This document shows positions 4,346 to 27,727 of a DNA stretch of 32,000 bases, in pieces. The notes below the pieces were generated by a model. That model worked only from the letters and a program-made list of their open reading frames with translations, was not told the origin of the DNA and searched no databases. The translations under genes and the position numbers were made by a program. Source of the stretch: Microcystis aeruginosa NIES-843 (GTDB taxonomy: Bacteria > Cyanobacteriota > Cyanobacteriia > Cyanobacteriales > Microcystaceae); assembly GCF_000010625.1 (NCBI RefSeq), contig NC_010296.1, positions 30,001-62,000 of the forward strand, read 5' to 3'. The stretch's first letter is position 1, and every line of letters begins with the position of its first letter.

Positions 4346-4738
4346 ATGACTCAGATTACTATTAATTTACCAGTCAGTTTACTTGAATCAGCCCAATGTT
4401 TAGGAAAGGCTACAGAACGAGAGTTATCAGAGGTTTTAATTGATACCTTAGAAATCATTTTGCCTACCTTTAATAATCTCTCAGCTGTGGGCAATCATCT
4501 TGAAGTTTCCAATCTTTTAGATTCCGAAGTTATTGAATTAGCTAATTCAAAAATGGATGCTGTTCAGAATCAACGCTTAGGAGAGTTACAAGCTAAGGGA
4601 AAAAATACGGGCTTAACCGAAGCCGAAGGCTATGAATTATTAGTTTTAATCTCAATTTACCAAATGGGACAATTAAGAAAGTCAATAGCCTTAGCTGAAG
4701 CCGTTAAACGAGGTTTGAGAGAGCCTTTAATACCATGA
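4346..4738 (+). CDS. Hypothetical protein, possibly RHH-like, translationally coupled to the HNH gene
   Basis: 130-aa ORF. The N-terminal MTQITINLPVSLLESA resembles a ribbon-helix-helix beta strand. ATGA overlap with the next gene. Confidence 0.35.
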   Translation: MTQITINLPVSLLESAQCLGKATERELSEVLIDTLEIILPTFNNLSAVGNHLEVSNLLDSEVIELANSKMDAVQNQRLGELQAKGKNTGLTEAEGYELLVLISIYQMGQLRKSIALAEAVKRGLREPLIP

Positions 4739-5178
4739 GTTTTCTCACAGAAACCTTACGCCAAAAAGTTAAACAACGGGCAGGAAATCGCTGTGAATAT
4801 TGCCTAAGTCACCAGGATTATATTATGGGGAGATTACAAATTGATCATATCCAACCTTTAGCTAAAGGTGGTGCTAATACAGAAGATAATTTATGTTTAG
4901 CTTGTGAATTATGTAATCAATATAAATGGACTCAAACTGAAGCTATTGATCCCAAATCTGAGGTGTTGGTTTCCTTATTTAATCCTCGCCTTCAAAAATG
5001 GCAAGAACATTTTACTTGGACTCAAGAAGGAACGGAAATTATGGGAGTAACGGCTTGTGGTCGAGCAACAATTGTAGCTTTAAGATTAAATAGTAATCTG
5101 GCTGTTATTGTGCGTAAAAATTGGGTTAAAGCTGGTTGGCATCCACCTAATTTGCAGACGGAATCTCACCTTACCTAA
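4735..5178 (+). CDS. HNH endonuclease
   Basis: CEYC...QIDHIQPLAKGGANTEDNLCLACELCNQYK is an HNH/zinc-finger motif. Confidence 0.75.
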   Translation: MSFLTETLRQKVKQRAGNRCEYCLSHQDYIMGRLQIDHIQPLAKGGANTEDNLCLACELCNQYKWTQTEAIDPKSEVLVSLFNPRLQKWQEHFTWTQEGTEIMGVTACGRATIVALRLNSNLAVIVRKNWVKAGWHPPNLQTESHLT

Positions 5179-5211: not shown

Positions 5212-6108
5212 ATGATAGTTGCTGACATTCAAAAAAGCTCCCTCAAAGAGCAAAGGCTACAATTTATTCGTAACCATCAACAAGCTTTCGATGTTGAGCC
5301 GATTTATCCTCTACGGCTGTTTGAAGATTTCGTGATGGGGGTTGAGGGCGATTGTACTATTCAAGCCTCTTGTAAGATAGAATTAGATCAACTCATTGCC
5401 TCAAGGTTTATGCTCTTTTTTAAAGATAAAGCTCAAGAATGGCAAAACTATCTAGCGCAGTCTTTAGCTTTTTTTCGGCAAGTTGAAAACCGAGTTGGTG
5501 TTAAATTAGACTATTCTTTATTACAGCAGTTCTTAGGACTTAATTTTAATTTCAGTAAAATCACGGTTTTCAGTACGGGTATTGATTTAAGGACTAATCT
5601 TGCTGATTCTAGTTTAAAAATGCACATCAGGCTAAAAGATTATCCTGAAAAAATCAACCAAGCGTTATTGTTAACCAGTGATAGTGATGATTTAATAGCT
5701 GTACGAGATTTTCTTTCCATTGTCGGCTTTGATTTCTATTTTGATGGCCGTAGTGCGATCAAAATTTACCCTGAAGTTGCAGAAACAGACTTTTTTAAAC
5801 CAGAAACTCAAGACAAAGTATGGCGACATCTTCCCAAATTTGTTTTAGAACCTCTTAAAGCAACAAGCTTATTTGGTTTTGGCTTTTCCAAAACAAATAA
5901 TAACCCAGTGCTTTACTACAGGCTCAAAAATCGTCAAGATTTAACCAATTACTTCAAGCTTAATGATACCGCCCAAAGAGTTCATAGCTTTTATCAGCAT
6001 CAAGATATTTTATCTAGTGTGTGGTTAGGTACAGCCCAACAAGAATTAGAAAAAACGAGAATTGAAAATGTTAGACTTTACTATTATAAACTCTTTGGTA
6101 AATTGTAG
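5212..6108 (+). CDS. pirF: Cyanobactin prenyltransferase (PatF/LynF/TruF family, ABBA fold)
   Basis: RLQFIRNHQQAFDVEPIYPLRLFEDFVMGVEGDCTIQASCKIE aligns with recalled PatF (RLQFVRTHQEAFDVKPTFPLPLFEE...EGSCSVESSCQVE). Similar length, 298 aa. Confidence 0.85.
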   Translation: MIVADIQKSSLKEQRLQFIRNHQQAFDVEPIYPLRLFEDFVMGVEGDCTIQASCKIELDQLIASRFMLFFKDKAQEWQNYLAQSLAFFRQVENRVGVKLDYSLLQQFLGLNFNFSKITVFSTGIDLRTNLADSSLKMHIRLKDYPEKINQALLLTSDSDDLIAVRDFLSIVGFDFYFDGRSAIKIYPEVAETDFFKPETQDKVWRHLPKFVLEPLKATSLFGFGFSKTNNNPVLYYRLKNRQDLTNYFKLNDTAQRVHSFYQHQDILSSVWLGTAQQELEKTRIENVRLYYYKLFGKL

Positions 6109-7709: not shown

Positions 7710-8279
7710 ATGTTAATCACAAAACCCCGCTTTCAAACCTTTGCCGAATATCTACAATATGAGGATAATTCAGAGGAATCTTATGAATTATTTAACGGAG
7801 AATTGGTAGAAATGCCACCAGAATCAGGACTTAACTTTCAAATTGCTAATCGTCTTTTTCTAGTCTTTGCTTTAATGCTAGGAACCGATAGAGTCAGAGG
7901 ACATGGTTTAGAATTAGAAGTGAGAGGCGAACCGAAAAACCGTTATCCTGACTTAACCATTATTCGAGAAGAACATATTCAATTACTCTCCCAGAGAAAT
8001 ACGATTCTTCTTTCCATGTCACCCCCCTTATTAGTCCTTGAAGTGGTTAGTCCGGGGGAAATCCAAAGAGAGAGAGATTACATCGCCAAAAGAATTCAAT
8101 ATCAAGATTGTGGGATTCCCGAATACTGGATCGTTGACCCCCAAACTCAAACCATTTTAGTCTTAGAATTAAGAGGAAATACTTATACAAAAATCGGTAA
8201 TTTTAGCAATGATGACTTAGTAAAATCTCCTGGATTCAAAGAATTAAACTTAAAGGTTTTTGATGTATTTAATTCTTAA
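7710..8279 (+). CDS. Uma2-family (DUF820) endonuclease
   Basis: PPLLVLEVVSPGEIQRERDYIAKRIQYQDCGIPEYWIVDP is the Uma2 core. Confidence 0.75.
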   Translation: MLITKPRFQTFAEYLQYEDNSEESYELFNGELVEMPPESGLNFQIANRLFLVFALMLGTDRVRGHGLELEVRGEPKNRYPDLTIIREEHIQLLSQRNTILLSMSPPLLVLEVVSPGEIQRERDYIAKRIQYQDCGIPEYWIVDPQTQTILVLELRGNTYTKIGNFSNDDLVKSPGFKELNLKVFDVFNS

Positions 8280-8625
8280 TTTTATCGGTTAACCCAAGAA
8301 TTAAAAAATGATGAACGGCTTAACTATTCCCGGATTAAAAGAACTACAAAAACAAACGAAAGGCGCATCAGAAATAACCGTCGCCATTCTTGATGGTGTA
8401 GTTGATACCGACCATCCCTGCTTCAATGGGGCAGACCTAACCCGTTTACCCACCCTCGTCCAGCATCAAGCCACCGCGGGGCAAATGTCCACTCACGGAA
8501 CCCATATTGCCAGCCTCATCTTCGCACAACCCAATAGCGACATCCAAGGTATTGCCCCCCAGTGTCGAGGCCTACTCGTACCCGTCTTCTCCGACGATAA
8601 CCGTAAACTCTCCCAACTCGATTTA
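8222..8625 (+). repeat. 404-bp direct repeat, left copy (Uma2 3' end + intergenic + first 106 codons of pirA)
   Basis: Matches 13087-13489, with one indel in an A-run and a few substitutions. Confidence 0.9.
8308..8625 (+). pseudogene. pirA: Orphan 5' fragment of the PatA-type protease gene, truncated by an IS
   Basis: Identical over 106 aa to the start of 13172..14089. After 8625 the ORF reads into the IS terminus (LDFGQRKTDL...). Confidence 0.85.
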
Positions 8626-8789
8626 TTGGACTTTGGACAAAGAAAAACAGATTTGCGTAAAACTTACGCAAATAAAATTTGAGGCAATATCTCCTTTGTC
8701 TCAGCCAGAAAAAAAGCTGAAAAATAGCGGTTCTTAAGGTCTTCTTAGCAAGACTTAGGGAACTTTCATCTTTTCTTTTTTACTTTTTG

Positions 8790-11048
8790 CCCACATTCCG
8801 CACCCTAAGTGTCACAACGTCTCAAAAGAGGAAGGGGCGCGAGTCAAAATACTTATCTAGAGGAGTGAGTTGGCGGCAAGCTGCCGGCAACTAAGCCGAA
8901 AATTTCAGAGTTCCCCCAGTCATTCTCAATAAACAGTGCTTGTTGAGAATGACTAGGCAATCAGACTTAACATCTAGGGGGAGATGTTCCAGTTGCTCGC
9001 TTTGTTTTGTCACCCCTTGAAGTCAATCCATCTGGTCAAGATAAGAGATAATATTCTTGGCAAGGTTTGGGGAAAAATCTCAAAATGTTGCGCCTCTCAT
9101 CCGTTAAGTTGCTAATCTTTTGATTGTCTTGAATACGTAGGAGATGAATCCCTTGAAAGTTCTGAAATATCCAGCGTAATGTTGGTCGGTCAGTTAACTT
9201 ACCCAACGGATTTTTCAGTCCCGTCTCCTGCTGTTTTAAACTTAAACGAAGTTGTCTTTGACCAATAGTATAAACCAGCAGGCACAAGCCCATGAGCATG
9301 GCCATGACCTCGATTCTATGGGGAGATTTGAGAAAGACACTGTGGGCAAAAAAGCAGGGGTCTTTGAGAAAAGAAAATCCTCTTTCCGGAGCTTGTTGCC
9401 CTTTATATTTTTTGAGTATATCCTCACTGCTTAATCGTTGTTTCTCCAAATCGTTAGTTGCTAAAACGAATCGTCCTGCTCGTTTCTTTAGCCTCTCAAT
9501 GGCGGTCAAATTCAACTCTAATTTGGCTTGAACTTGATAGCTTTGAGAGGGTAAATCGTCTTTTGATTTGAGTTTTGACCCCTGGGACTCAGGCGGAATG
9601 AGATTGACTTTAATCTCCGTTAACTGATGAGATTTTAAGGAGTCAGATAATCCTTTGGCTATCGCCAACGCCACCGCTCTATTCTCAAATTCTCTTCGGG
9701 ATAGTTGCCGGATTTTTTCTTGGGCAGAATTCTTTTCCTGCTCGATTTTTTTCTCTAATTTTTTCAAGTCTGATTCTTGTCTAGCTTGACTTTCAACTAG
9801 CAACCATCTTTGTTCTATCCCCCCATAGTTAGAGATGGTTTCCCGCCAGGAATAACCCGGTATTTCTGAATCGGTTAACTCTTTTTCTGAGATGCTATCA
9901 ACCAACTCTTGAGCCTCTTTAATGCTTAATGGTACTCGAGACAACCAACGCATTTCTTTCATTAGTTTTAAATTCTCTTTGCTATAGAGGGCGCTATCGC
10001 CGACTATTAAACTGTCAAAGTCAACTTGTTTTTTAAATTCTCGGGCGATTTGACCAAAAACCGCTTTGTCCGCTTCATTTCCGTCCCCTACTTTCAGGAA
10101 TAAAGGTACATCTCCATCCCCACTTACGATTAAGTCAATCATAAATTGTTTTAAGTCAGGTCTTCGGTCGCGGGAGTATCCGTAGGTAATTTTTATTGGC
10201 TGTTGTCTGGTTTCAATTTCTTCTCCCACTGCTCCTGATTTCAGGATTTCTACTGTTGGGTATTCCTTGTTATATTCTCCTTCTACTGATAGAGAAGTCG
10301 AATCTAAATGGGAGTTCTCGGTTGCTACACCAAATTTTTTCACGGCCGCTAAACTAATCAGTAGGAAAATGACCGAAACATTAAGTTGATAAAGTTTGTC
10401 CATTACTCGACCAATTTTATCATCATTCAGGTGTTTTGGTTCGATGCCCTCTCCCAGCAGATGTTCGGTTGCTTTATCTTCAAAAAATTGAGGAAATAAA
10501 TACAAGGCTCGGGAGACAAATCCCAATCCATTCAGGATAATTGCTTTCACGACTTGCCCCGCTGTGACAATTTCTCCTCGCTCAATTGAGACTTGTTCGT
10601 TGATAATTTCAACGATTCCTATTTCATCGATAATTCCGGCTACTAATCCCAGATGGTCTAGATTTTTGACTTCAATTTCTGTTGATTGATTCATGGTCGA
10701 ACAGTCCACTCGCCTCAGTTTTCCAACAATTCCTATTGGGACTTAAACAAAACCTAAGACAAAAATAGCTTCAAACCCATACAGAGAGATGACTTAAGTT
10801 CAAACAACACTCAATCTAGTCTTCTTGAGGGTTTCAGTCATTTTTTTCTTATTTACCTCTTTCCCTTATTCAGAGGGTTTTTCAGTGCTTTTATGGCTCG
10901 AAAAGTGTCTAAGTCCCACTATTTTTTCATAATTAGGGTCTCAAAGCCCCCCTAGCGGCCACCGAGAAAACCTTCACCAGCTAAGTATTTTTACTCAAGT
11001 CTCTGGCGGGGGACAGCTTATGTGACAGTTGAGGGTGCGGAATGTGGG
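8790..11048 (-). mobile_element. IS1634-family (IS4 superfamily) element nested in the outer IS (2259 bp)
   Basis: Inverted repeats CCCACATTCCGCACCCT at both ends. 6-bp TSD TTTTTG at 8784-8789 and 11049-11054. Confidence 0.8.
9036..10709 (-). CDS. IS1634 family transposase
   Basis: 557 aa. The N-terminus NLDHLGLVAGIIDEIGIVEIIN and overall architecture are typical of IS1634/IS4 transposases. Confidence 0.8.
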   Translation of the reverse strand: MDCSTMNQSTEIEVKNLDHLGLVAGIIDEIGIVEIINEQVSIERGEIVTAGQVVKAIILNGLGFVSRALYLFPQFFEDKATEHLLGEGIEPKHLNDDKIGRVMDKLYQLNVSVIFLLISLAAVKKFGVATENSHLDSTSLSVEGEYNKEYPTVEILKSGAVGEEIETRQQPIKITYGYSRDRRPDLKQFMIDLIVSGDGDVPLFLKVGDGNEADKAVFGQIAREFKKQVDFDSLIVGDSALYSKENLKLMKEMRWLSRVPLSIKEAQELVDSISEKELTDSEIPGYSWRETISNYGGIEQRWLLVESQARQESDLKKLEKKIEQEKNSAQEKIRQLSRREFENRAVALAIAKGLSDSLKSHQLTEIKVNLIPPESQGSKLKSKDDLPSQSYQVQAKLELNLTAIERLKKRAGRFVLATNDLEKQRLSSEDILKKYKGQQAPERGFSFLKDPCFFAHSVFLKSPHRIEVMAMLMGLCLLVYTIGQRQLRLSLKQQETGLKNPLGKLTDRPTLRWIFQNFQGIHLLRIQDNQKISNLTDERRNILRFFPKPCQEYYLLS

Positions 11049-12540
11049 TTTTTGTCTGTTTTTTGATAACTTGATGGCGGGTTCGTGGCACTTTTTTATA
11101 ACCTTTAATTCGTCCAGCCGAATAACCTCGGCGTTTGGGAGATTTGACCAAAGTGCCAATCTCCGAAATTATTCTGTAAAAGTCTCTTTGAACCAAGCTG
11201 GGTGTAATTTCTACCGATTCACTTTTTTTCAAATACTGCTCCCAAGGACGGGGTAAAACCAGAGCTAATTTCCTAGTTGCCCATAAATTTACAGCAGCTA
11301 ATAGGGTGAGTTGAACCCAATTTTCCTCATGATTAACTTCAGGGGTATAATAGGCATTCAGCAACAATTTTTGTTGACCAAATCGAAAAAGATGTTCCAG
11401 ATCATAACGTTGTCCATAAGCCTCATAACATTCTTGAAGACTTAACTCATAACGACGAGAACCAATAAGGATAAGCCACATCGGTTTCCAGACGGCTTTA
11501 CCAGTTTCATCACTGACAATAATTTGTAGTAAGGTAAAGGGATGAGAGTGCATTTCATAGTCGGATGTTCCCCTCATTAGCATTTGTTTCCAACCAGAGA
11601 TTTTGAGATTAAGTTCACGTCCCCTTTTAGTCGTAAAAGTTGATTGAATGATTTCATCTGGTTCGAGCCAAGTTGTCTCATCTTTGAGGTCAAATTTATC
11701 CCCATACCAACGGGGATGACCCGGTTGTTTGGGAGAATAATCTTCAGGAATAAATTGCCGATAAAAGACCCGATTACTTCTCCCTCGTGTGAGGGTAACT
11801 AAATTATTTTGCTTGACTTGTTCTCCAAGAAAACCTCGCTGACTATAGAGACTATCAGCGACTAAAACTGATAATTTATCTTTCCAGGGAACTGAGGAAT
11901 GGTTCAGGATTTTTTTGACTTGGTTACTGGCCACAGAAATGTCTTTTTCTCCTGAAGATACTCGTTGTCCTGACAGGGGAATTGCCCAAGGCACGTTTCC
12001 CGTTTCACTTCGTTCTGGCAGAGCAGCAATTACTGAATAAGCATGACCAATATTGATGGGTTTATTGCCTTTGATAGTATTGGGTTGATAGATATACTTT
12101 TTGTCTTCTAGAGTCGCCGAATAAGGTCTTGGACAAGGAGTTACATCTACTCCAAATAAATAGAATTGTCTAGAAACGGGGGGAGGAATAGTAGCCGAAA
12201 CGACTGATAATAAGCTATCAAATGCTTTTTGATAATTGTCATTTGTTGGACTTGGTAAAAACTCTTGAATCCCTTTATATAAACTGTTATAATCTCGACG
12301 AAATAAAGGGTTCAAAGATAATTCGGCAACTGTTGAAGCTTGTCGATTCGACGAGAGGGAATCCAGCAATTCCATGACCGTCTCGCGTCTCGAACCAAGG
12401 GCGTTATAGAGTTGCCTTCTCCACTTCAAAAGTTCTTCGACATCAGGACAAATTTCTTGACTTTTCATCGGAAAAAATATATGAGAAATTAATCTGCGTG
12501 AAATATACGCAAATATTCTTATAATATAAGAAGCCCCCAA
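10981..12540 (-). CDS. DDE transposase of the outer IS (family uncertain), with its 3' end replaced by the IS1634 terminus
   Basis: 519-aa ORF. The last 22 codons come from the nested IS inverted repeat. Removing the nested IS gives a 506-aa ORF ending KQTKSKKEKMKVP*. Confidence 0.65.
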   Translation of the reverse strand: MGASYIIRIFAYISRRLISHIFFPMKSQEICPDVEELLKWRRQLYNALGSRRETVMELLDSLSSNRQASTVAELSLNPLFRRDYNSLYKGIQEFLPSPTNDNYQKAFDSLLSVVSATIPPPVSRQFYLFGVDVTPCPRPYSATLEDKKYIYQPNTIKGNKPINIGHAYSVIAALPERSETGNVPWAIPLSGQRVSSGEKDISVASNQVKKILNHSSVPWKDKLSVLVADSLYSQRGFLGEQVKQNNLVTLTRGRSNRVFYRQFIPEDYSPKQPGHPRWYGDKFDLKDETTWLEPDEIIQSTFTTKRGRELNLKISGWKQMLMRGTSDYEMHSHPFTLLQIIVSDETGKAVWKPMWLILIGSRRYELSLQECYEAYGQRYDLEHLFRFGQQKLLLNAYYTPEVNHEENWVQLTLLAAVNLWATRKLALVLPRPWEQYLKKSESVEITPSLVQRDFYRIISEIGTLVKSPKRRGYSAGRIKGYKKVPRTRHQVIKKQTKTHIPHPQLSHKLSPARDLSKNT

Positions 12541-12551
12541 TCTGTAAGCTG

Positions 12552-12987
12552 ATGCTCAAATATAATTTCTTGAAGACGAACCAAGAAGCTGGACTTAGAG
12601 CCAAACAAATCAAGGCTACTATTCGTAAGTTGAAGCAAAAAATCCAGAAAATCGAAGCAGAAGGAGAAGTCGCTCCGCCCCCTTGTCATGTGATTCGTTA
12701 TCAAACTAAGCTTTCATCAAAAAATTTACTGGTATTATAAACTACAAAGCAACGAACCGCTTTTTCCAACAGCAACTGATAGTAACAAAAAAAGTAAATA
12801 TTTATATTTAGGTAAAGCTGGAAGCGAAGCTCATCTTGAGGCGGTGGAAAAAGTAGCTCGAAGAAGTCTTATTGACGAATTAGAGAGAGTTATTAATTCT
12901 CTCCATGAAAGTTACTTGGATGTTTGTTTTGGAGGGGAAACGGAGCCTGACCCTTCTTATTATAACGAGGGATTAAAAGAGGAGTAA
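12552..12987 (+). pseudogene. Accessory ORF of the outer IS, apparently frameshifted
   Basis: A 62-aa ORF followed, in another frame, by YKLQSNEPLFP...LGKAGSEAHLEAVEKVARRSLIDELERV...EE*. Function unknown. Confidence 0.3.
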
Positions 12988-13086
12988 CCCTTTCCTCTTT
13001 GATGTGAGACTGACTAGGCAAAATTAAACGCAAATTAAATTTGCGTAATATTTACGCAAATTTAATTTTTTTTGTCCAAAGTCCAA

Positions 13087-13489
13087 AAAATCTCCTGGAT
13101 TCAAAGAATTAAACTTAAAGGTTTTTGATGTATTTAATTCTTAATTTTATCGGTTAACCCAAGAATTAAAAATGATGAACGGCTTAACTATTCCCGGATT
13201 AAAAGAACTACAAAAACAAACGAAAGGCGCATCAGAAATAACCGTCGCCATTCTCGATGGTGTAGTTGATACCGACCATCCCTGCTTCAACGGGGCAGAC
13301 CTAACCCGTTTACCCACCCTCGTCCAGCATCAAGCCACCGCCGGGCAAATGTCCACCCACGGAACCCATATTGCCAGCCTCATCTTCGCACAACCCAATA
13401 GCGACATCCAAGGTATTGCCCCCCAGTGTCGAGGCCTACTCGTACCCGTCTTCTCCGACGATAACCGTAAACTCTCCCAACTCGATTTA
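13087..13489 (+). repeat. Direct repeat, right copy (403 bp)
   Basis: See 8222-8625. Confidence 0.9.
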
Positions 13490-14037
13490 GCGAGGGCGAT
13501 TGAACAAGCCGCCGAAAAAGGGGCAAAAGTGATTAATATTAGCGGCGGGACCCTCACTGATATGGGAGAAGCCGAAGACTGGCTAATTCGTGCCGTCGAG
13601 ATGTGTAACGAGAGAAATATTCTTCTCGTTGCTGCTGCTGGCAATGATGGCTGTGAATGCCTCCAAGTTCCAGCAGCCCTTCCCGCCGTCCTCGCGGTGG
13701 GTGCTGTTGATGCTAGAGGCCATCCCCTCGACTTTAGTAATTGGGGGGAAACCTACCAAAGCCAAGGCATCCTTGCCCCTGGAGAAAACATCTTAGGGGC
13801 AAAACCCGGAGGCGGGACTGTGCAACTGAGTGGGACCAGCTTCGCCGCGCCCATTGTGGCCGGAGTAGCCGCCTTATTACTCAGCTTGCAGGTGCAGCGG
13901 GGAGAAACCCCCAATCCTCACGCAGTCCGGGAGGCAATACTAAAAAGCGCCCTCCCCTGCCAATATGCAGACAGCGAAAATGAACCAAAATGTTTAGCCG
14001 GAGTATTGAACATTTCTGGGGCAATTAAACAACTAAT
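13172..14037 (+). pseudogene. pirA: PatA-type cyanobactin N-terminal protease, subtilisin domain (5' part of the interrupted gene)
   Basis: Catalytic triad contexts AILDGVVD, HGTHIASL and GTSFAAP. Long collinear match to recalled PatA (GIAPQCRGL.VP.FSDD...QLDLAR.IE...INISGG...LLVAAAGN.GC.CL.VPAALPAVLAVGA). Confidence 0.9.
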
Positions 14038-14224
14038 GGGACTTAAACGCCAAATAAAGATCAAATCGAGTATAATCGTTAAAGAGTAAGCACTTTACGT
14101 TGAAAGATCAGCGATGAAAGAGACAACCCCAGCCGCGATGCCCCCATGCTTTGACCGATGGTGTCGGCGGTTTGACAATTGCTTCAAAAACGAAGCGCAA
14201 AAAAACGGCTTCAGACAATATTTA

Positions 14225-15222
14225 GGGTCTGCTGAAAAAGTTTTTCCTAGGGGCAGGGTGTAGGGTGTGGGGTGTGGTGCGATTCGTTGGCTAGAAACTA
14301 GACAGTAAGACGTTTAGAGGATTAGCCGCTTGGTAAATGTAGTACCTTGATAACTTTATAACCCTACAGGTGCGGGTTAGTAATAACCTTAGTCCTGTCC
14401 TCTAGATGCCTAGAGTGACGGCATTTCCTGCTGCTTTAGACTTGGTACATCTGAGGTAGTGAGCGAGGAAAAAAAAGCGGTATCTGATAGCCTAAATCAG
14501 AAACCCGTTGAGCCAGAACCTATGGATAGCCCTGGGGCGAAGATACGAATTAACCATCGTCAACACCCACGAGCCAAAAGGCTGACAGGCTCGAAACAAA
14601 AGTTAACAGAGTTGGGGCTGATAGCTCATACCACTATCAGTAAGGCATTCCCGTTACTCTGTTGTGGACAGTATCATCCTAAGGGTTCAACCAATGGTTA
14701 TAGGGAACGAAGTAACCCTGATTGACTCTGCCCGTTCGGGGCAGTAGGAAACCATCCGCAAGTCAATAGAGGGAGAGGATGTCCTTAAAAGCCAAGGCTT
14801 TGAGTAATATCAAAGATATGCTGACAAAGGACGGGTAACTAGGAAGTCTAAGCAACAATCAACGGTCATATACGCCCTAAAACCAACAATCTTGTCTGGT
14901 GGGGATACAGCCAAGAGGGTTGAATAGACAAGGAAATAATAATTCCCATTATTATTCTACTAATGACAGTAGCCTAGTTACTCAGGAGCCGGATACGGCG
15001 AAAGTCGTAAGTCCGGTTTTGAAGCAGGGGGTGGGAAGGCGACTTCCTGCTCTACTGTAACGGGTGTGGGGTTTGACCGATTTTGAGGGGGTCAATTACC
15101 TAATTTTCAGGGAAAAAGTCCCTGAATTTACCCCTGATCACTCCCATATCTGGTACTTTTTGAGGGGAAAAAAGTCCAAAAGTCTTATCCAACAAGGTTT
15201 TTAGATTTATTCAGCCAGCCCT
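14225..15222 (+). mobile_element. MITE (about 213 bp) carrying a group II intron
   Basis: Ends GGGTCTGCTGAA ... TTCAGCCAGCCCT. 5-bp TSD ATTTA (14220-14224 and 15223-15227). Same family as 27072-27496. Confidence 0.75.
14277..15061 (+). ncRNA. ORF-less group II intron (785 nt)
   Basis: 5' GUGCG. Domain V at 14986-15019 (GAGCCGGAUACGGCGAAAGUCGUAAGUCCGGUUU) has the AGC triad, a 2-nt bulge and a GAAA loop. Domain VI has a bulged A 7 nt upstream of the last intron nucleotide. The EBS1 loop CAUACC (14627-14632) and EBS2 ACACCC (14563-14568) complement the 5' exon GGGUGU-G-GGUGUG. Confidence 0.8.
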
Positions 15223-16404
15223 ATTTAGGAGGATTATTAGGGGAAAGTGAGAGGAAAAACCTCACTCAAATGGCCAATAATGCCGTCGGAGTAGTTTATA
15301 ACCGATTACATCACTTTTTGACCGAATCTCCCTGGTCAGACCGTCAGGTGAATGAATGTCGGTTGCAAGTGATGAACCAATGCCGCCAGACGCAAATCCC
15401 CCGAGGATTTTCCCTGATTGTCGATGACTCAGGACATCGAAAAAGTGGCAATCTGACCGCCGGAGTTGGCAGGCAGTACCTAGGAGAAATTGGCAAGACA
15501 GACAACGGAATAGTCGCCGTCACTACCCATCTCTACGACGGCAAAAAAAGTGTCCCCCTAGACATTGAAATTTATCAACCGGCTAGTTCCTTAGCCGAGG
15601 GGAAAGAAGACAAAGAATTTAAGAAGAAACCAGAGATAGCGATAGATTTAATTGACCGGAGCTTAACCAGAGGCTATCGACCGAAAATCGTCTTAATAGA
15701 TGCTGGTTATGGCAACAACACAAATTTTCTCAAAGCCCTGGAAGAAAGAAAGCTAAAATACTTAGGAGGATTGGCAAAAAATCGAAAAGTAATTATTGAA
15801 AAAGAAGGGGGTGTGGAAGAAACAATCCAGCTTGAGCAACTAGCAAAAAGCCTATCAGAAAAGGATTGGGAGAAAATCACCCTAAATCTAGATAAAGAAA
15901 AAACGGTTTGGGTAGCGGTATTCAGAGCGAAAATATCTCAACTAGAAGGAGAAAGGAACTTGGCGATCGTCATGAATGCAAGTTCAATGGAAAAAGCCAC
16001 AGAGGTGGACTATTTCATCACCAATGTAGTTGAGGCAGATACAGTAACAGCTTCGTGGATAGTGAGGACTTACACCGAAAGAAATTGGGTGGAAGTATTC
16101 TACCGAGAAGCCAAAGGATGGTTAGGGTTAAGGGAATATCAAGTCAGGGATAAACGAAGCTTACTTCGTCATTTTATCCTGGTGTTTTGTGCCTATACAT
16201 TTATCCTGTGGCATAAGTTAACTGGGGGATTGCAAAGGCAGTGGGCGAATCGACCTTTAAACACTTTTGTGGAAGCCTTGGAAGCTTTTCGGACAGCGAT
16301 GTCTTTCCGTTTCTTTGAGTGGCTGACCGAGAATCGGGATGTGTTTGCCGCTTACAAAGCCAGTTTAGGCTTTGTTTGGGCTTGAAATTTGTTTAAGTCC
16401 CAAT

Positions 16405-17488
16405 AACAGGAGAAACCATGTCCGAATCTGTGGAAACCCAAGCAACAGTAGAAGCATCAGGCTGTGGCTGCGGTGGTACGCCCGAAACCCCTGAGGCTGA
16501 ACGCCAAAAACTCGAACTGAGTGCCGCAACTAGCGCACCGGTAATTCCCGTCGCCCAAATTCCCAATCCTGTCATCACCTCTCAAGGAGTATCTATGCCC
16601 GAAACCACTAATAAATCTGTTACCCCTAGCCAAGCTGCTGAACCTGCTGGCGGAATCGTCTATGCCATTGGCAGCTTGGGCTATGACTTCGGCTCCGAAG
16701 CCCGTCGGGACACATTTAAACAACTGATGCCGACAGCGGTAATTGGTGGTATTGAAGTTCCCTCTAATCCCTACGATGCCCGTCAGATGGTGGATTACCT
16801 GGCTGACAACCTCTCGGAAGCTAAATCCTTAATTTGGACCCTGAACCTGGAACTTACGCCAATTTACGCCATTGAACCCCTTGGCTCTTTTTCCCGCGAA
16901 GTTTATGCGGCTTTACAGGAACTTCTTTCGGGACAAGTGCAAGCAGAAGACAGCCCCGAATATATCCAGCGTGTTAGTATTCCTGGACGGATTACTGGAC
17001 GAACAGTACGCCTGTTCTCAGGACAAGTTGTTCCCGTCATTGAACCGGATAGCCCCCGGGGAATTTATGGTTGGCACGTTAATACTTTAGTCAGTGCGGC
17101 AATCGAAGCTGTTGGTGCAGAACAAACAGAAGCCCAAGAAAGCCAAATGCGCCGCACTTTGAGTAGTTTCCTCAACCGCATCTACTACGATTTACGCAAT
17201 TTAGGGCAAACTTCCCAAGACCGCGCCCTCAATTTTGCTGCGACTAACGCTTTCCAAGCAGCGCAAACTTTTTCTGAGGCTGTGGGTGCGGGGATGGAAC
17301 TCGATAGTATTAATGTTTCTAAGAGTCCTTTCTGTCGGCTGGATAGCGATTGTTGGGACGTACAGTTAAAATTCTTCGACCCGGAAAATAGCCGCCGCGC
17401 TCGTAAAGTCTTCCGTTTTACCATTGATGTCAGTGATTTAATTCCTGTCACCTTGGGCGAAGTTCGTTCCTGGTCTTCTCCTTATTAG
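16405..17488 (+). pseudogene. pirA: PatA-type protease, linker and C-terminal PatA/PatG DUF domain (3' part of the interrupted gene)
   Basis: VYAIGSLGYDFGSEARRDTFKQLMP...FRFTIDVSD...VTLGEVRSW is paralogous to the pirG C-terminus. It is in frame with 13172-14037 after IS excision. Confidence 0.85.
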
Positions 17489-20139: not shown

Positions 20140-22235
20140 ATGCCTGATCTCAATGCTATCCCCGGAATGACCGCTCTTCGCTCCCAGACAAAAGGCGATC
20201 CACGCATCAAAATCGCCGTTCTTGATGGACCGATTGACTTAGATTGCGCCTGCTTTCAAGGAGCAAATATTACCCGCCTTGATCCCTATTGGTCGCAAGA
20301 ATTTCCCATCGATCCGCAACACTTACAAGCCTTTTTAGATGTAGAAAAAAGTGCCAAAAGTGATGAAGAAAAAGGTGATATGTTGAAAGAAGCGATTCCC
20401 GATGAAAACATCCTCCAGAGTTTGCATTTGCGCTTCCATGCTAACCATATTATCAGCACCATTTGCGGCCAGCCAGATTCACCTGTAGAAGGGATTGCTC
20501 CTAACGCTACTGTAATTAATATTCCCATCGCCTATAGCAACGAAGATTTTATTAATCCCCTCAATCTTTCTCGCGCAATTAGTACCGCTATTGAACAGGG
20601 AGTTAATATTATCCATTGTGCCGCTTGTCATCCAACTCAAAGCGGATAGCTCACGAATTTATTGATAAAGCAATTCGTCAAGCTCAAGCTAATAATATCC
20701 TGGTGATTGCCCCCGGAGGTAATGATAAGGGAGAGTGTTGGTGTGTTCCTGCGGTATTAGAAAATGTCCTGGCGGTGGGAGCGATGAAAGATACAGGCGA
20801 GCCATTTAAATTTAGTAATTTTGGTGGTAAATATGCAACTCAAGGGATTCTCGCTCCAGGAGAGAATATTTTAGGCGCTCAACCCGCAACTGATGACCCC
20901 ATTCGCAAAAAAGGGACTAGCTGCGCCGCTCCCATTGTGACAGGAACAGCCGCTTTATTGATGAGTTTACAATTAGAACAGGGTTTATCTCCTGATGCTG
21001 AAGCAGTAAGGGCCGCCTTGATTAATAGTGCCATCCCCTGCGATCCTAATGAAGTAGAAGAACCAGAACGCTGTTTATTAGGAAAAATTAATATTGCGGG
21101 TGCTTATGAACTGCTGACGGGAGAGAAATTACAAACTGTTGAAGCGGATAACAATTTGTCGAATAATATCATAGAATCGGCGGTAATTCCGATGACAGTG
21201 ACAACCTCGGTTATCCCATCTAATACAACCGAGATGGCGACTCAGGGAATAACTATAACCCCCCCAACAGCAGCGACAATAGAACTGGCGATCGCTCCTA
21301 GCAATGCTTCAGAAAATGTTTCCTCAACTGGATTAATACAAAATAATCAAACAAATAAAAATATTGTCTTTAATAGTGTCGTTCCTAGTCAACGTTCAAA
21401 CCTCGTTTATGTGTTAGGAACTTTAGGTTATGACTTCGGAACAGAAGCGCGTCGGGACACCTTTAAACAATTAATGCCAAGCATCACGATCGATAATCTT
21501 GAATTACCATCCAATCCCTACGATGCGCGGCAAATGGTAGATTATTTAGAAAGTAATCTATCAGAAACTAAGTCTTTAATTTGGACAGTCAATTTAGAAC
21601 TAACTCCCATATATGCGATTAAACCAGTGGGAGCTTTTGCCGCCGACATTTATCAAGTCATCCAATATATGTTAGCGGGTCAAATATTACCAGAATCTGA
21701 CGAAGATTATGTGGAAAGGGTGAGTATCCCCGGTATGCTGACCGAGGAAACTGTGAAACTTTTTTCTGGTCAAATTGTTCCCGTCATCAAGGTTAATAGT
21801 CCCAGGGGAATGTATGGCTGGAAAGTTAATACTTTGATTGAATCAGCGCTAGAAACTGTTAGCGCAGAACATGAAATCGCCGATGAAGCGAGGATGCGGC
21901 GTTCTCTGACCAGTTTCTTGAATCGCATTTATTATGACTTACGCAATGTCGGACAAATCGCCCGGGATCGCGCTTTAAATTTTGCAGCTACTAACGCTTT
22001 TCAAGCTGTACAAACCTTCTCCCAAGCAGTAGCGCTGGGAATGGAACTACACAGCATTGAAGTGGAAAAAAGCCCTTTTTGTCGCTATGGTAGTGAATGC
22101 TGGGATGTGAAATTAAAATTCTTCGATCCCGAAAATGGTCTGCGGGCCAAACGAGTTTTTCGCTTTACCATTGATGTCAGCGATCGCACCCCTGTAACTT
22201 TAGGTGAAGTGCGTTCTTGGGCTGTTTCTAAATAG
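20140..22235 (+). pseudogene. pirG: PatG-type cyanobactin macrocyclase (subtilisin + capping insert + C-terminal DUF), no oxidase domain, 1-nt frameshift near 20645
   Basis: Two overlapping ORFs, 20140-20649 and 20616-22235. HCAACHPTQSG* continues in the -1 frame as IAHEFIDKAIRQAQANNILVIAPGGN...GTSCAAP. This matches recalled PatG (NIIHCAFCRPTQTSEGEEILVQAIKK...). Confidence 0.85.
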
Positions 22236-24473: not shown

Positions 24474-25795
24474 AAAATTTGGGTCTGAAACCCCGCCGTT
24501 TTACGGCGGCTTTGCTGTTAAATATTAGCACATTTACGAAATATATGCTAAAATATGAGACATGGAAAAAGCCTATTCTTACCGATTTTACCCCACACCC
24601 GAACAAGAGTCGCTATTGCGGCGCACATTGGGCTGTGTAAGATTAGTTTACAACAAAGCTCTCCATGTCAGAACACAAGCATGGTACGAAAAGCAAGAAA
24701 GAGTAGGCTACGCTCAAACTTCTTCAATGTTGACCGATTGGAAAAAACAAGAAGAATTAGACTTTTTAAACGAAGTAAGCTGTGTACCTTTACAACAAGG
24801 GTTAAGACACCTACAAACAGCTTTCACTAATTTCTTTGCTGGTCGTACTAAGTATCCTAACTTTAAGAAAAAACATCAGGGAGGAAGTGCCGAATTTACC
24901 AAATCTGCTTTTAAATTTAAAGACAGACAAGTCTATTTAGCTAAATGCACAGAACCTTTACCTATTCGATGGTCAAGACAAATACCAGAAAGCTGTGAAC
25001 CAAGCACAGTAACAGTCAGATTACATCCATCTGGACGTTGGCATATTTCAATTAGATTTGATGACCCAACGATTAAGCCATTACCAGTAACAGATAAAGC
25101 CATCGGAATTGACTTAGGAATTAGTAGCCTCGTGATTACCAGCGATGGCGATAAAGTATCTAATCCTAAGCATTTTAACAAGCATTATCAGAGACTGCGA
25201 AAGGCCCAAAAAAGCCTTTCTAGAAAACAGAAAGGGTCAAAAAATCGGGAAAAAGCAAGAATCAAAGTAGCCAAGATTCACGCTCAAATCACCGATAGTA
25301 GAAAAGACCATTTACACAAGCTAACCACTCAATTAGTTCGTGAAAACCAAACGATTGTGGTTGAGAATTTAGCCGTCAAGAATATGGTCAAAAACCCGAA
25401 ATTATCTCAGGCAATATCTGATGTAAGCTGGGGAGAAATCACTCGACAATTAGCCTATAAATGCCGTTGGTATGGGAGAAACTACATCGAAATAGATAGA
25501 TGGTTTCCTAGCTCTAAAAGGTGTAGTAATTGCGGGTATATTGCCCTTGAAAATGCCGTTAAATGTTCGAGAATGGGATTGTCCAGACTGTGGGACGCAC
25601 CATGACCGAGATATTAACGCCAGTAAAAATATTTTGGCCGCAGGGCTTGCGGTGTCAGTCTGTAGAGCGACCATAAGACCAGAACAGAGTAAATCTGTTA
25701 AGGCAGGTGCGAAAAATCCTTCGGGAAAGAAGCAGAAACCCAAATCGTGAGGTTTGGGAATCGCCGTCCGTTTTACGGCGGCGAGGATGTCAAGT
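24474..25795 (+). mobile_element. IS200/IS605-family TnpB-only element (IS1341-like)
   Basis: Subterminal hairpins CCGCCGTTTTACGGCGG (left) and CGCCGTCCGTTTTACGGCGGCG (right). It carries only a tnpB gene. An extended -10, TGCTAAAAT, lies at 24546-24554. Confidence 0.7.
24562..25750 (+). pseudogene. tnpB: TnpB (IS605 OrfB) RNA-guided nuclease gene with a frameshift near 25535-25545
   Basis: MEKAYSYRFYPTPEQESLLRRTLGCVRLVYN... The zinc-finger/RuvC-III region is split: CSNCGYI | [35 protein letters not shown] continues in another frame. Confidence 0.85.
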
Positions 25796-26585: not shown

Positions 26586-27727
26586 TTTGGGTTTGTAGCG
26601 CTGCAAAAATTGTCTCCACATATCGATCTATTGTCAGACGAGTTCTCTCAATTCTCAGACGAATAGCGGCAGCGGGGATTGTTCTGCTTCTAAACAACTG
26701 TTTCTGATTTTTGTACCAAACTAACTGAGTTTTGCCAGCGATGCTTCCCTGTAAACCTGCCCCTACTCCCCCAGTTTTTTTATCTATTGCCCATGCCCAA
26801 GAAAAAACATTAGGATCAAGAGGATTAAGGGGGTATTCACAGTAAACATATTCATTGCCCTCTCGGTTTTTTAGCAATATTCCCTCATAGCTGTTGATGA
26901 CATTTTGAGCAGTTTGACTGGAGCGAATCTTCTCGTTCCAGTGTTGAATAATAGCGGTTCCCAGTTGTGCGGGGGAAGATTGCAGATTCAAAGAGGGAAC
27001 CCCAAGTTGAATGGCTTTTTTGATAATATCTGCTCGTTGAATTACGAACAAAAAGGTATTATCTGTAGTTAGGGTCTGCTGAAAAAGTTTTTCGTGGGGG
27101 CAGGGTGTGGGGTGTGGGGTGTGGGGTGTAGGGTTTTACCGATTTTGAGGTAGTCAGTTACCTGGGGTCTGCTGAAAAAGTTTTTCCTAGGGGCAGGGTG
27201 TAGGGTGTGGGGTGTGGGGTTTTACCGATTTTGAGGGGGTCAATTACCTAATTTTCAGGGAAAAAGTCCCTGAATTTCCCCCTGATCACTCCCATATCTG
27301 GTACTTTTGGATTTCAAAAAAGTCTAAAAGTCTTATCCAGCAAGGTTTTTAGATTTATTCAGCCAGCCCTACCTAATTTTCAGGGAAAAAGTCTAGGAAT
27401 TTTCCCCCCGATCACTCCAATGGTAGGCACTTTTTGAGGGAAAAAAAGTCTAAAAGCCTTATCCAACAAGGTTTTTAGATTTATTCAGCCAGCCCTAGTT
27501 AAACTATTCAGTTGTAGAGATTTTAGCGACCAACCACTGGCAGTTTTACTGTCCACTGCATCGTAGAGTAGTTTGCTTCTGCCTAGGGCAGGATCGGATA
27601 AAGGAATATTCTTGATATAATGAAAAATTGCTTCCCAGCTATAATCCTCGATCGAGCCAATCAATGGTGAGGCAATTGCGGCTAGAATGGCCTGCTTTAG
27701 TCTTTTAGTCTCGTCGTTCGTTAACAC
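26560..27727 (-). pseudogene. Putative type II restriction endonuclease gene interrupted by nested MITEs
   Basis: Fragments 27727-27497 (77 codons) and 27066-26560 join in frame once 27072-27496 and one AGTTA copy are removed, giving about 245 aa. The gene is convergent with and overlaps the MTase 3' end. The function is inferred from context only. Confidence 0.5.
27072..27496 (+). mobile_element. MITE nested inside a MITE (outer 27072-27163 + 27371-27496, inner ~27164-27370)
   Basis: Same termini (GGGTCTGCTGAA...TTCAGCCAGCCCT) and the same GGGGTGT heptamer array as 14225-15222. 5-bp TSD AGTTA at 27067-27071 and 27497-27501. Confidence 0.75.

Follow-up and report, generated by a model that had tools for sequence, protein, structure and literature searches.

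Dissection of the insert in the protease gene pirA of Microcystis aeruginosa NIES-843 into an insertion sequence, a MITE and an ORF-less group II intron

Introduction

How did three mobile elements come to lie one inside the other within a single gene of Microcystis aeruginosa, a bloom-forming, toxin-associated cyanobacterium, and did their arrival silence the pathway to which this gene belongs? The 32,000-nucleotide stretch of strain NIES-843 analyzed here (the window, to which all coordinates refer; strands are given as + or -) represents the piricyclamide (pir) cluster, in which pirA (13172-17488) is interrupted by an insertion sequence (IS) that contains a miniature element (MITE), which in turn contains a group II intron. 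A first-pass annotation, made from the letters of the window, had proposed this nest, together with a chronology of four mobility events and an explanation of how the pathway was lost.

The locus carries the name pirA in Leikoski et al. (2012, PMC3428304), where both pirA insertions as well as a frameshift in pirG (nt 508) have already been reported. One of these insertions, 'IS2', was described as a 2367-bp insert with inverted repeats and a 3-bp direct repeat (PMC3428304) and is the same object as the nest analyzed here (Leikoski et al. 2012, PLoS One 7:e43002). While it was treated there as one transposase-encoding IS, it is resolved here into ISMae34, a MITE and a group II intron. What is new is this dissection of the 'IS2' insert and an intron family tied to TAGGGTGTRGGGTGTR|GG heptamer arrays.

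Results

The 5' part of pirA (13172..14036, +) encodes a subtilisin-like domain, identified as Pfam S8 in the restored ORF, was collinear with the intact locus L001 in BLAST comparison and ends in the left copy of the IS target, CTAA (14033-14036, +). The 3' part (16403..17488, +) starts with the right copy, ATAA (16403-16406, +), and encodes the domains PatG_D and PatG_C (Pfam PF18047 and PF18065). Excision of the IS restored an ORF with PF00082, PF18047 and PF18065, the product of which was 98% identical over 100% coverage to intact 647-aa Microcystis proteases of the PatA/PatG family. With S8 followed by PatG_D and PatG_C in a cyanobactin cluster, where its neighbours are a PatC-like gene, pirG and pirF (DUF5838), PirA is a PatA-type cyanobactin protease. 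The first-pass annotation had obtained a PatA-type ORF in the same way, but its IS ends (14038-16401) were one base off and its target duplication AAT is actually the 4-bp CTAA/ATAA (one mismatch), as judged from other ISMae34 copies; its restoration leaves an extra Ile, whereas all intact homologues read KQL-TGET at the IS site. Natural empty sites were found in pirA of M. viridis NIES-102 and in read-assembly contig L023, which reads CAACTAACAGG and has an identical downstream 356-aa product. The right IS/pirA junction was common to five read-assembly contigs, with L023 having the empty site instead. An exact-match query with the truncated PirA fragment (305 aa) found no record.

The IS in pirA is a copy of ISMae34 of the IS701 family and spans 14037-16402 (2366 bp including MITE and intron). 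Its left part (14037..14224, +) comprises the left inverted repeat TGGGACTTAAAC and the start of the transposase gene (ATG at 14114, codons 1-37, +) and includes the left copy of the MITE target repeat TATTTA (14219-14224, +). TATTTA recurs in the right part (15222..16402, +) at 15222-15227 (+); this part also holds the remainder of the transposase gene, whose stop lies at 16385 (+), and the right inverted repeat GTTTAAGTCCCA. Taking out 1003 bp (the MITE and one repeat copy) yielded a 1363-bp IS with a 422-aa ORF. The restored transposase scored 344 bits on NCBIfam NF033540 (IS701; cut-off 150), also carries Pfam DDE_5 and was 96-97% identical along its entire length (100%) to intact 422-aa Microcystis transposases, one of which is named 'ISMae34 family' in the source database. 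Its N-terminal 51 residues are part of the conserved transposase, since the NF033540 alignment begins at residue 13 and homologues of 421 aa cover 100% of the query. This family DDE transposase, the terminal inverted repeats and the short target duplication identify the element as ISMae34.

Nine other ISMae34 copies had the ends TGGGAC...GTCCCA and 4-bp target duplications of the form YTAN (CTAG, CTAG, TTAG, TTAG, CTAT, CTAA, TTAA, TTAT and, with one mismatch, CTAT/CTAA), which place the ends of the pirA copy at 14037/16402 and its duplication at CTAA/ATAA. Intact copies in NIES-102 are without the MITE and 99.8-100% identical at the DNA level to the window IS, the left end of which is 100% identical to theirs. 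ISMae34 has been described as an IS701-family element of ~1.36 kb with 32 copies in NIES-843 (Kaneko et al. 2007, PMC2779907); the pirA copy differs from this description in that it carries a MITE at about codon 37 and the full 422-aa protein is not encodable.

The MITE is a non-coding element of 212 bp that occupies 14225-15221 including the intron and is flanked by the 6-bp target repeat TATTTA. Its left part (14225..14276, +) is made up of the terminal repeat GGGTCTGCTGAA together with the initial three GGGTGTR heptamers, the 5' exon of the intron, and its right part (15062..15221, +) extends from the remaining heptamers (the 3' exon) to the right terminal repeat TTCAGCCAGCCC; the two ends match at 10/12 positions. 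The excision proposed earlier, which had removed 14225-15222 and one ATTTA copy, is equivalent to ours and restores the same in-frame transposase. Its small size, lack of coding capacity, multiple copies, terminal inverted repeats and target-site duplication identify the element as a MITE. A second member of the family lies at 27072-27495 of the window between TAGTTA repeats (27066/27496), a position that is empty in L028; further copies were present in the fetched loci, and 390 kb of sampled Microcystis DNA gave 32 BLAST matches. No IS within the window has ends matching those of the MITE, and a derivation from the IS1634 element of the window was rejected on account of its different ends.

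The innermost layer is a 785-nt group II intron without an ORF (14277..15061, +). Its 5' end GUGCG and 3' end AC (15060-15061) fit the consensus GUGYG/AY, and its boundaries agree with natural empty sites: the contiguous MITE is present in two intron-free IS::MITE copies (L020 and L044) that read exactly like the intron-excised sequence GGGCAGGGTGTAGGGTGTGGGGTGTGGGGTGTGGGGTTT, which bears out the expectation that removing the intron restores the heptamer array. The match to Rfam RF00029 (14984-15061; 55 bits, gathering score 40) covers the full model (1-77) and stops exactly at the claimed 3' end of the intron. Domain V (~14986-15019, +), with its AGC triad and GNRA loop, is followed by domain VI with a bulged A, as expected of a group II intron. 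A match to the group-II-D1D4-2 model was sub-threshold (26.7 bits, gathering score 36, E = 0.003), and the minimum-energy fold (z-score -5.1) indicated a strongly structured RNA. No reverse transcriptase/maturase ORF was found within the intron, whose domain IV is reduced to a short remnant hairpin (~14930-14958, +), and look-up of its ORFs of 88 and 53 aa gave no family match. ORF-less derivatives are a recognized subtype of group II introns.

All three excisions were run in silico, the restored ORFs were aligned to intact homologues, and each excision works. The matches are not due to chance. The identities and nesting of the layers given in the first-pass annotation (PatA-type pirA, IS701 element, MITE, group II intron) hold, and each has its match among natural sequences.

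Full-length copies of the intron at other loci were 98.6-100% identical, with most at 100% and seven matching in 785/785 positions. They were always located in TAGGGTGTRGGGTGTR|GG heptamer arrays. Across 13 distinct 5' flanks, GGGTGT was invariant at -14..-9 and -7..-2, TA was present at -16/-15 in 12/13 and GG at +1/+2 in 13/13. An unoccupied match to this target (TA GGGTGTG GGGTGTG | GGG) lies in the other MITE-family copy of the window (27201..27219, +). From the near-identical copies, the 13 distinct 5' flanks and the precise natural empty sites we infer that the intron is mobile. A candidate EBS1, CAUACC (14627-14632, +), is located wholly in a 9-nt hairpin loop and can pair with GGUGUG, while a candidate EBS2, ACACCC (14563-14568, +), lies ~60 nt upstream of it and can pair with GGGUGU. 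The EBS1 candidate pairs a C with position -1, yet an A is found there at 3/13 sites. The alternative EBS2 ACCCUACA (intron nt 87-94) could explain the conserved TA at -16/-15 but was judged less likely, as it sits too close to the 5' end of domain I and its position 88 varies (C/A/T) among copies while the target is unchanged.

The IS::MITE composite was also present at two other loci of NIES-102, where a separate 4-bp IS duplication flanks each copy. L020 (duplication CTAG) is without the intron, while L041 (TTAT) carries it in the same register as the pirA copy; the metagenome contig L044 represents a further IS::MITE without intron. Position, orientation and target repeat of the MITE in these composites were all the same as in pirA, and the composite MITEs were 99.5% identical, compared to 86-93% for other members of the family. 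Plain IS, IS::MITE and IS::MITE::intron are thus all found in public genomes. As the composite occurs at other NIES-102 loci and pirA of this strain is empty, the IS already carried the MITE when it landed in pirA. The pirA gene was probably interrupted by a composite element that had been assembled at least in part elsewhere.

The relative chronology read from the nesting by the first-pass annotation, with first the IS, then the MITE and then the intron inserting at pirA and the stack inactivating the pathway, is compatible with the geometry of the nest, and the very high identity of the intron copies would fit the intron as the latest mover. Such a succession in situ is nevertheless improbable: the same MITE-in-IS junction is found in L044 and at the two NIES-102 loci in a strain with empty pirA, the pirG frameshift occurs beside an intact pirA, and a second, separate disruption ('IS1') is located upstream.

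For the intron, arrival either before or after the landing of the IS in pirA is conceivable. Had the complete IS::MITE::intron composite (2366 bp) been put together at another site and then moved into pirA in a single transposition, the intron would have reached this gene by DNA transposition on its hosts and not by local retrohoming. The triple composite in L041, with the same intron register and its own duplication TTAT, would agree with such an arrival, as would the intact IS ends and the 32 ISMae34 copies of NIES-843 as possible sources of transposase (PMC2779907). We regard it as rather unlikely, because the target consensus (TA at -16/-15) fixes the register, so that independent homing gives the same junction, and because the window composite shows fewer differences from L020 (3) than from L041 (~12). 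In addition, the SNP at position 511 groups L041 with the intron-free L020 and not with the window copy; this single SNP favours independent gains of the intron.

Gene conversion between IS copies could be an alternative way for MITE and intron to spread among resident ISs. That an IS already resident in pirA acquired both from a composite copy elsewhere in the genome, through gene conversion or homologous recombination and with neither direct insertion nor transposition of the composite, appears highly improbable, even though ISMae34 copies with 99.5-100% identity over 1.36 kb provide ample homology and the SNP 511 pattern could reflect conversion within NIES-102. The composites have their own matching 4-bp duplications, as expected in transposition, although conversion, too, would leave the flanks unaltered; the sequences compared contained no positive evidence for conversion.

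An assembly at least partly elsewhere, which remains our preferred reading, has to be viewed alongside the other lesions of the cluster. The PatG-type protease gene pirG (20140..22235, +; TIGR03895 match) is split into ORFs of 169 and 539 aa, and alignment to intact 698-aa alleles revealed a 1-nt deletion at ~20646/20647. This deletion is common to NIES-102, L028, which has an intact 648-aa pirA, and L031, which originates from SRR14576922, the same sample as the empty-site contig L023. Upstream, a duplicate of the pirA upstream region and its first 317 nt (8222..8625, +; BLAST against intact L001) forms the left arm of a 404-bp duplication; the corresponding right arm (13087-13489) differs by 4 substitutions and 1 indel in pairwise comparison. 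Between these arms lies the second nested insert, 'IS1' (8626..13086, -), which measured 4461 bp (4.46 kb) here compared to the 4361 bp with a 404-bp duplication given by Leikoski et al. (2012, PMC3428304). It consists of an outer IS with 62-nt inverted repeats (I1, I5) and a transposase of the NCBIfam NF041680 type (10981-12540), and an IS1634-family element (8790-11048; transposase 9036-10709) inside it; 'IS1' is absent from the intact loci L001 and L028. Because the pirG frameshift also accompanies an intact pirA, the host cluster would, assuming its vertical descent, have been defective before the insert arrived. The earlier suggestion that the nest shows how the pathway was inactivated is therefore not borne out, given the pirG deletion beside intact pirA and the second insert upstream. 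It is more probable that the pirA insert was tolerated by a cluster already in decay than that it caused the loss of this cluster.

Relatives of the intron and a potential source of its helper protein were sought in several collections. An exact D5 scan of a genome collection recovered only 9 contig ends, all in one Microcystis MAG, and no ORF-containing relative; a degenerate version of D5 had 0 matches among viral contigs, and the whole composite had no BLAST match in the plasmid and phage collections. In 149 kb of fetched Microcystis loci, Rfam scans detected no further type of group II intron. When metagenomes were scanned with the 25 nt at the 5' end of the intron, further insertion sites were found as well as introns with unrelated exons (L049, L052, L053, L057 and L058), among which those in L057 and L058 encode RT+HNH proteins of ~580-590 aa. 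These were rejected as parent introns, since what they have in common with the pirA intron is limited to the 5' 25-mer and ~78% of the first 96 nt. With the L058 intron protein as query the best 120 matches were all from other cyanobacteria, with no Microcystis among the matches listed. NIES-843 contains seven group II reverse transcriptases, six of them nearly identical and with an HNH/McrA domain (PMC8934634), which are possible trans-acting helpers.

Discussion

Direct observation covers the layers with their ends, the empty sites and the composites at other loci; the following course of events would connect them. The 212-bp MITE probably inserted once, at TATTTA and about codon 37 of the transposase, into one ISMae34 copy and split its 422-aa gene, leaving a derivative that was probably unable to move alone. 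The transposase of the many intact ISMae34 copies would have moved this IS::MITE in trans to several YTAN sites, including a CTAA in pirA, in the linker that joins the protease domain to PatG_D, within a cluster that was probably already defective through the pirG frameshift. After this landing, or shortly before it, the intron would have entered the G-rich heptamer array of the MITE (TAGGGTGTRGGGTGTR|GG) by site-specific retrohoming, probably recognizing two GGGTGT repeats through EBS1 CAUACC and EBS2 ACACCC, with a reverse transcriptase presumably supplied in trans by another intron.

Dai and Zimmerly reportedly found in 2002 that residence in other mobile elements is a general pattern of bacterial group II introns. 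The Microcystis intron resembles this pattern in its location in mobile DNA and not in a housekeeping gene, which implies a low host cost of insertion. It differs in that its host is a MITE in an IS in a gene and in that a microsatellite-like array is recognized instead of an IS-specific sequence. A nested arrangement with a cyanobacterial group II intron is also known from the Trichodesmium twintron, an intron in an intron with both layers removed at the RNA level (PMC4649490). In pirA, unlike in the twintron, only the innermost layer is predicted to be spliceable; as the IS and the MITE are DNA transposons, the gene is not rescuable by splicing. Thermosynechococcus elongatus reportedly has ORF-less group II introns that are mobilized in trans (Mohr, Ghanem and Lambowitz 2010, PMC2882425). 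Like the introns of that account, the one described here is cyanobacterial, is without an intron-encoded protein and has multiple near-identical copies, which implies mobility with the protein of another intron; unlike them, it targets a tandem heptamer repeat in MITEs and elsewhere.

It is tempting, if still doubtful, to see in these copies an undescribed family of ORF-less Microcystis introns specialized on the TA-(GGGTGTR)n array that is carried by a high-copy MITE family. If this were true, DNA transposons would spread landing pads for the intron through the genome, and IS::MITE::intron composites would offer the retroelement a second route, hitch-hiking on DNA transposition. The result would be a three-way dependency in which the intron needs the reverse transcriptase of another intron while the MITE and the crippled IS need the transposases of others. 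For the published description of the locus, the correction is that the 'IS2' silencing pirA in NIES-843 is three elements and not one. Given several independent lesions in the cluster, the IS stack should not be read as the inactivating event, and the locus provides a worked example of a nesting order that differs from the order of events at the site itself.

An active-looking, protein-less intron with a simple, repeat-based target in a bloom-forming cyanobacterium also offers a system for studying retargeting rules and trans-mobilization. In annotation, the 785-nt intron gives rise to a spurious 88-aa gene call, and short-read assemblies break at it, with nine contig ends in one MAG stopping inside the intron.

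Layers of the pirA insertion

In Microcystis aeruginosa NIES-843 (AP009552), this region corresponds to the piricyclamide (pir) cyanobactin cluster, for which a disruption of pirA by two "insertion sequences" and a frameshift in pirG have already been published (PMC3428304). In pirA, Leikoski et al. 2012 described an insert of 2367 bp, with a direct repeat of 3 bp, and a larger one between the arms of a duplication of 404 bp, and in pirG they described a frameshift at nt 508 (PMC3428304); all three features are present in the window. Should the pirG end given there (52235) be equivalent to window 22235, the window would span genome positions of about 30001-62000. While the 2367-bp insert was treated as one IS in that study, here it resolves into ISMae34, a MITE and a group II intron; a group II intron at pirA is unmentioned both there and in the NIES-843 genome paper (PMC2779907).

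The first-pass annotation had proposed that pirA (13172-17488) holds an IS701-family element, which holds a MITE, which in turn holds the intron. The intron, the MITE and the IS were excised in silico, and all three excisions gave the expected product, confirming both the nest itself and the identity named for each layer, subject to one-base corrections. The intron segment (14277-15061, 785 nt) starts with GTGCG and lacks protein-coding capacity. Its last 78 nt match the full Rfam Intron_gpII model (domains V and VI) at 55 bits (gathering score, 40), with the alignment terminating at the final base of the claimed intron, and its predicted fold is far more stable than those of shuffled controls (z = -5.1). 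Removal of the intron restored a 212-213-bp element with the heptamer array GGGCA GGGTGTA GGGTGTG GGGTGTG GGGTGTG GGGTTT, which is exactly the array in the intron-free copy L020 of M. viridis NIES-102. Excising the MITE with one repeat copy (1003 bp in total) left a 1363-bp IS with an in-frame 422-aa ORF to which the IS701 family transposase model NCBIfam NF033540 gives 344 bits (cut-off 150) and which aligns over its full length, at 96-97% identity, with intact 422-aa Microcystis proteins, one of them named "ISMae34 family" by its source. Excision of the IS returned a pirA ORF with S8, PatG_D and PatG_C domains and 98% identity to Microcystis PatA/PatG-family proteins. The restoration of a PatA-type ORF thus held, but the ends originally assigned to the IS left one extra isoleucine exactly at the junction (KQL-I-TGET versus KQL-TGET in six intact homologues).

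The boundaries were corrected from other copies. ISMae34 elsewhere has the ends TGGGACTTAAAC...GTTTAAGTCCCA and 4-bp target duplications (CTAG, CTAG, TTAG, TTAG, CTAT, CTAA, TTAA and TTAT, and the imperfect pair CTAT/CTAA in a further copy), which therefore place the IS in pirA at 14037-16402, flanked by CTAA (14033-14036) and ATAA (16403-16406). The uninterrupted sequence CAACTAACAGG was found in the intact pirA locus L001 and in L023, a read-assembly contig in which the 356-aa product encoded downstream is identical with that of the window; the right IS/pirA junction is common to five other read-assembly contigs, and the samples with this junction are SRR14576921, SRR14576924, SRR3140621, SRR3140609 and SRR28374917. 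The MITE occupies 14225-15221 with a 6-bp repeat, TATTTA, as judged from a second family copy at 27072-27495, for which the empty site in contig L028 gives a 6-bp repeat, TAGTTA; for purposes of excision the coordinates first assigned to the MITE are equivalent. The second copy itself consists of two MITEs of the same family, one within the other, the outer one bearing the TAGTTA repeat and the inner one holding a perfect but unoccupied intron target (27201-27219). A metagenome contig (L043, 1-110) has the same right MITE/IS junction with a MITE part only 85% identical, and may reflect either chimeric assembly across the repeat or recombination between MITE copies.

Peeled states elsewhere and order of events

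Copies of the composite were located by exact look-up of the small ORFs created at its junctions. M. viridis NIES-102 (AP019314.1) yielded three states: plain ISMae34, ISMae34 with the MITE inside, and the same composite with the intron. Plain ISMae34 is present in five copies without the MITE (L037-L040 and L042), 99.8-100% identical to the IS arms of the window. The intron-free composite L020 sits in a gene other than pirA with its own duplication, CTAG, and its MITE matches that of the window in site, orientation and repeat, while the full intron-bearing composite L041 lies at a third locus (duplication TTAT) and was later struck by another ISMae34 and an extra insert of ~375 bp. The MITE-in-IS arrangement without the intron was also found in a metagenome contig (L044). 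Since the MITE is 99.5% identical within composites compared to 86-93% for other family members, the MITE-in-IS junction represents one ancestral event. The pirA gene of NIES-102 is empty at the IS site of the window and, together with the composites at other loci, this places the MITE in the IS before the IS reached pirA. A relative chronology of events at this locus, which had been read from the nesting order, is therefore not supported.

Movement has brought the composite to at least three sites. With the transposase gene interrupted at codon ~37, the composite has lost an N-terminus that is conserved in the family (the NF033540 alignment begins at residue 13, and homologues of 421 aa span 100% of the query), and so the transposase presumably came from intact ISMae34 copies and would have mobilised the composite in trans. 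NIES-843 is reported to have 32 copies of ISMae34 (PMC2779907). Gene conversion between IS copies would be a minor alternative to such trans-mobilisation.

The intron and its target

Bacterial group II introns tend to reside in other mobile elements. As a whole, the locus adds a new and well-documented case of element types that are already known. Intron copies were found by exact look-up of an 88-aa ORF within the intron (window 14459-14725), which is almost certainly spurious; gene calls in several public assemblies include it. Further searches covered representative genomes with the D5 sequence and metagenomes with the 5' 25-mer, in one scan each. Full-length copies at other loci are 98.6-100% identical, with seven, including L041, matching at 785/785 positions, and one MAG has nine contig ends that stop inside the intron. 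The 13 distinct 5' flanks define the target T(-16) A(-15) GGGTGT R GGGTGT R | G G (G), in short TAGGGTGTRGGGTGTR|GG, in which both GGGTGT blocks and positions +1 and +2 are invariant and TA is present in 12 of the 13. Roughly half of these insertions are in members of the same MITE family, and the remainder are in heptamer arrays elsewhere.

The TA requirement fixes the register in the MITE array, so that independent homing events would all yield the same junction. At the one informative SNP (position 511) the intron-bearing L041 groups with the intron-free L020, and the window composite is nearer to L020 than to L041. Based on these sequence comparisons, independent intron gains appear mildly favoured over movement of the triple composite.

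The best candidates for the intron side of the intron-exon pairing (EBS) are CAUACC (14627-14632), which occupies most of a 9-nt hairpin loop in the predicted fold, and ACACCC (14563-14568), ~60 nt upstream. They could pair with GGUGUG (-6 to -1) and GGGUGU (-14 to -9), respectively. Both are invariant across slightly diverged intron copies; the C of CAUACC faces an A at -1 in three sites, and no covariation was seen among the copies. The target is probably recognised through these candidate pairings. Seven group II reverse transcriptases are reported for NIES-843, six of them nearly identical and with an HNH/McrA domain (PMC8934634); these would be possible sources of the reverse transcriptase for the intron.

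This heptamer-targeting, ORF-less intron and its tie to a MITE are the most interesting by-product of the analysis. Full-text literature on Microcystis group II and ORF-less introns, covered incompletely, gave no description of the present family; the closest analogue is found in Thermosynechococcus elongatus, in its set of ORF-less group II introns (PMC2882425). In two other Microcystis sequences the intron is itself interrupted, which adds one level of nesting to those in the window: in L050 (3296-4670) after nt 115 by a 1145-bp IS with TACCAAATTTC ends, and in L048 (12471-12610), where intron similarity ends after nt 140.

The pirG frameshift and other insertions

The pirG gene (20140-22235) has lost 1 nt at nt 508 of the gene (window about 20646/20647), which splits it into ORFs of 169 and 539 aa. 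The same deletion is found in NIES-102 (L027), in contig L028, whose 648-aa pirA is intact, and in L031 from SRR14576922, the source sample of the empty-site contig L023, while two loci (L029 and L030) carry intact 698-aa alleles. Because the deletion co-occurs with intact or empty-site pirA, the frameshift is probably older than the pirA insertions.

Upstream of the nest, the pirA promoter region and the first 317 nt of the gene are duplicated over 404 bp (8222-8625 and 13087-13489; 4 substitutions and 1 indel between the arms). The arms enclose an insert of 4461 bp (8626-13086), compared to the 4361 bp reported by Leikoski et al. 2012 (PMC3428304). This insert is a two-level nest: the outer IS, which encodes an NF041680-type transposase and has inverted repeats of 62 nt, contains an IS1634-family element (8790-11048) with perfect 17-nt inverted repeats. 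The pirA gene of NIES-102 (L027, AP019314.1 3810779-3831738) carries five or more other insertions, one of them a plain ISMae34 in opposite orientation, with the duplication CTAT, at the position equivalent to window 17049-17052, and pirA has thus decayed independently in NIES-843 and NIES-102. Given the shared pirG frameshift, the second insert upstream and the independent hits in NIES-102, the proposal that the nest reveals how the pathway became inactive is unsupported. The picture is one of a cluster that was already free of selection and has been gathering mobile DNA independently in different strains.

The NIES-102 pirA insertions also include an IS630-type element. Directly upstream of pirF (5212-6108, DUF5838), two overlapping ORFs (4346-5178) comprise one without a family match and an HNH endonuclease (4735-5178). 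A dcm-type DNA methylase gene, of which L027 and L028 carry an intact version (381 aa), is interrupted by an IS200/IS605-type element (24474-25789) encoding TnpB (24562-25605). The equivalent sites of L027 and L028 also lack a ~1.6-kb IS found at 27776-29369, whose ISAzo13-type DDE transposase is split (27920-28438 and 28474-29148).
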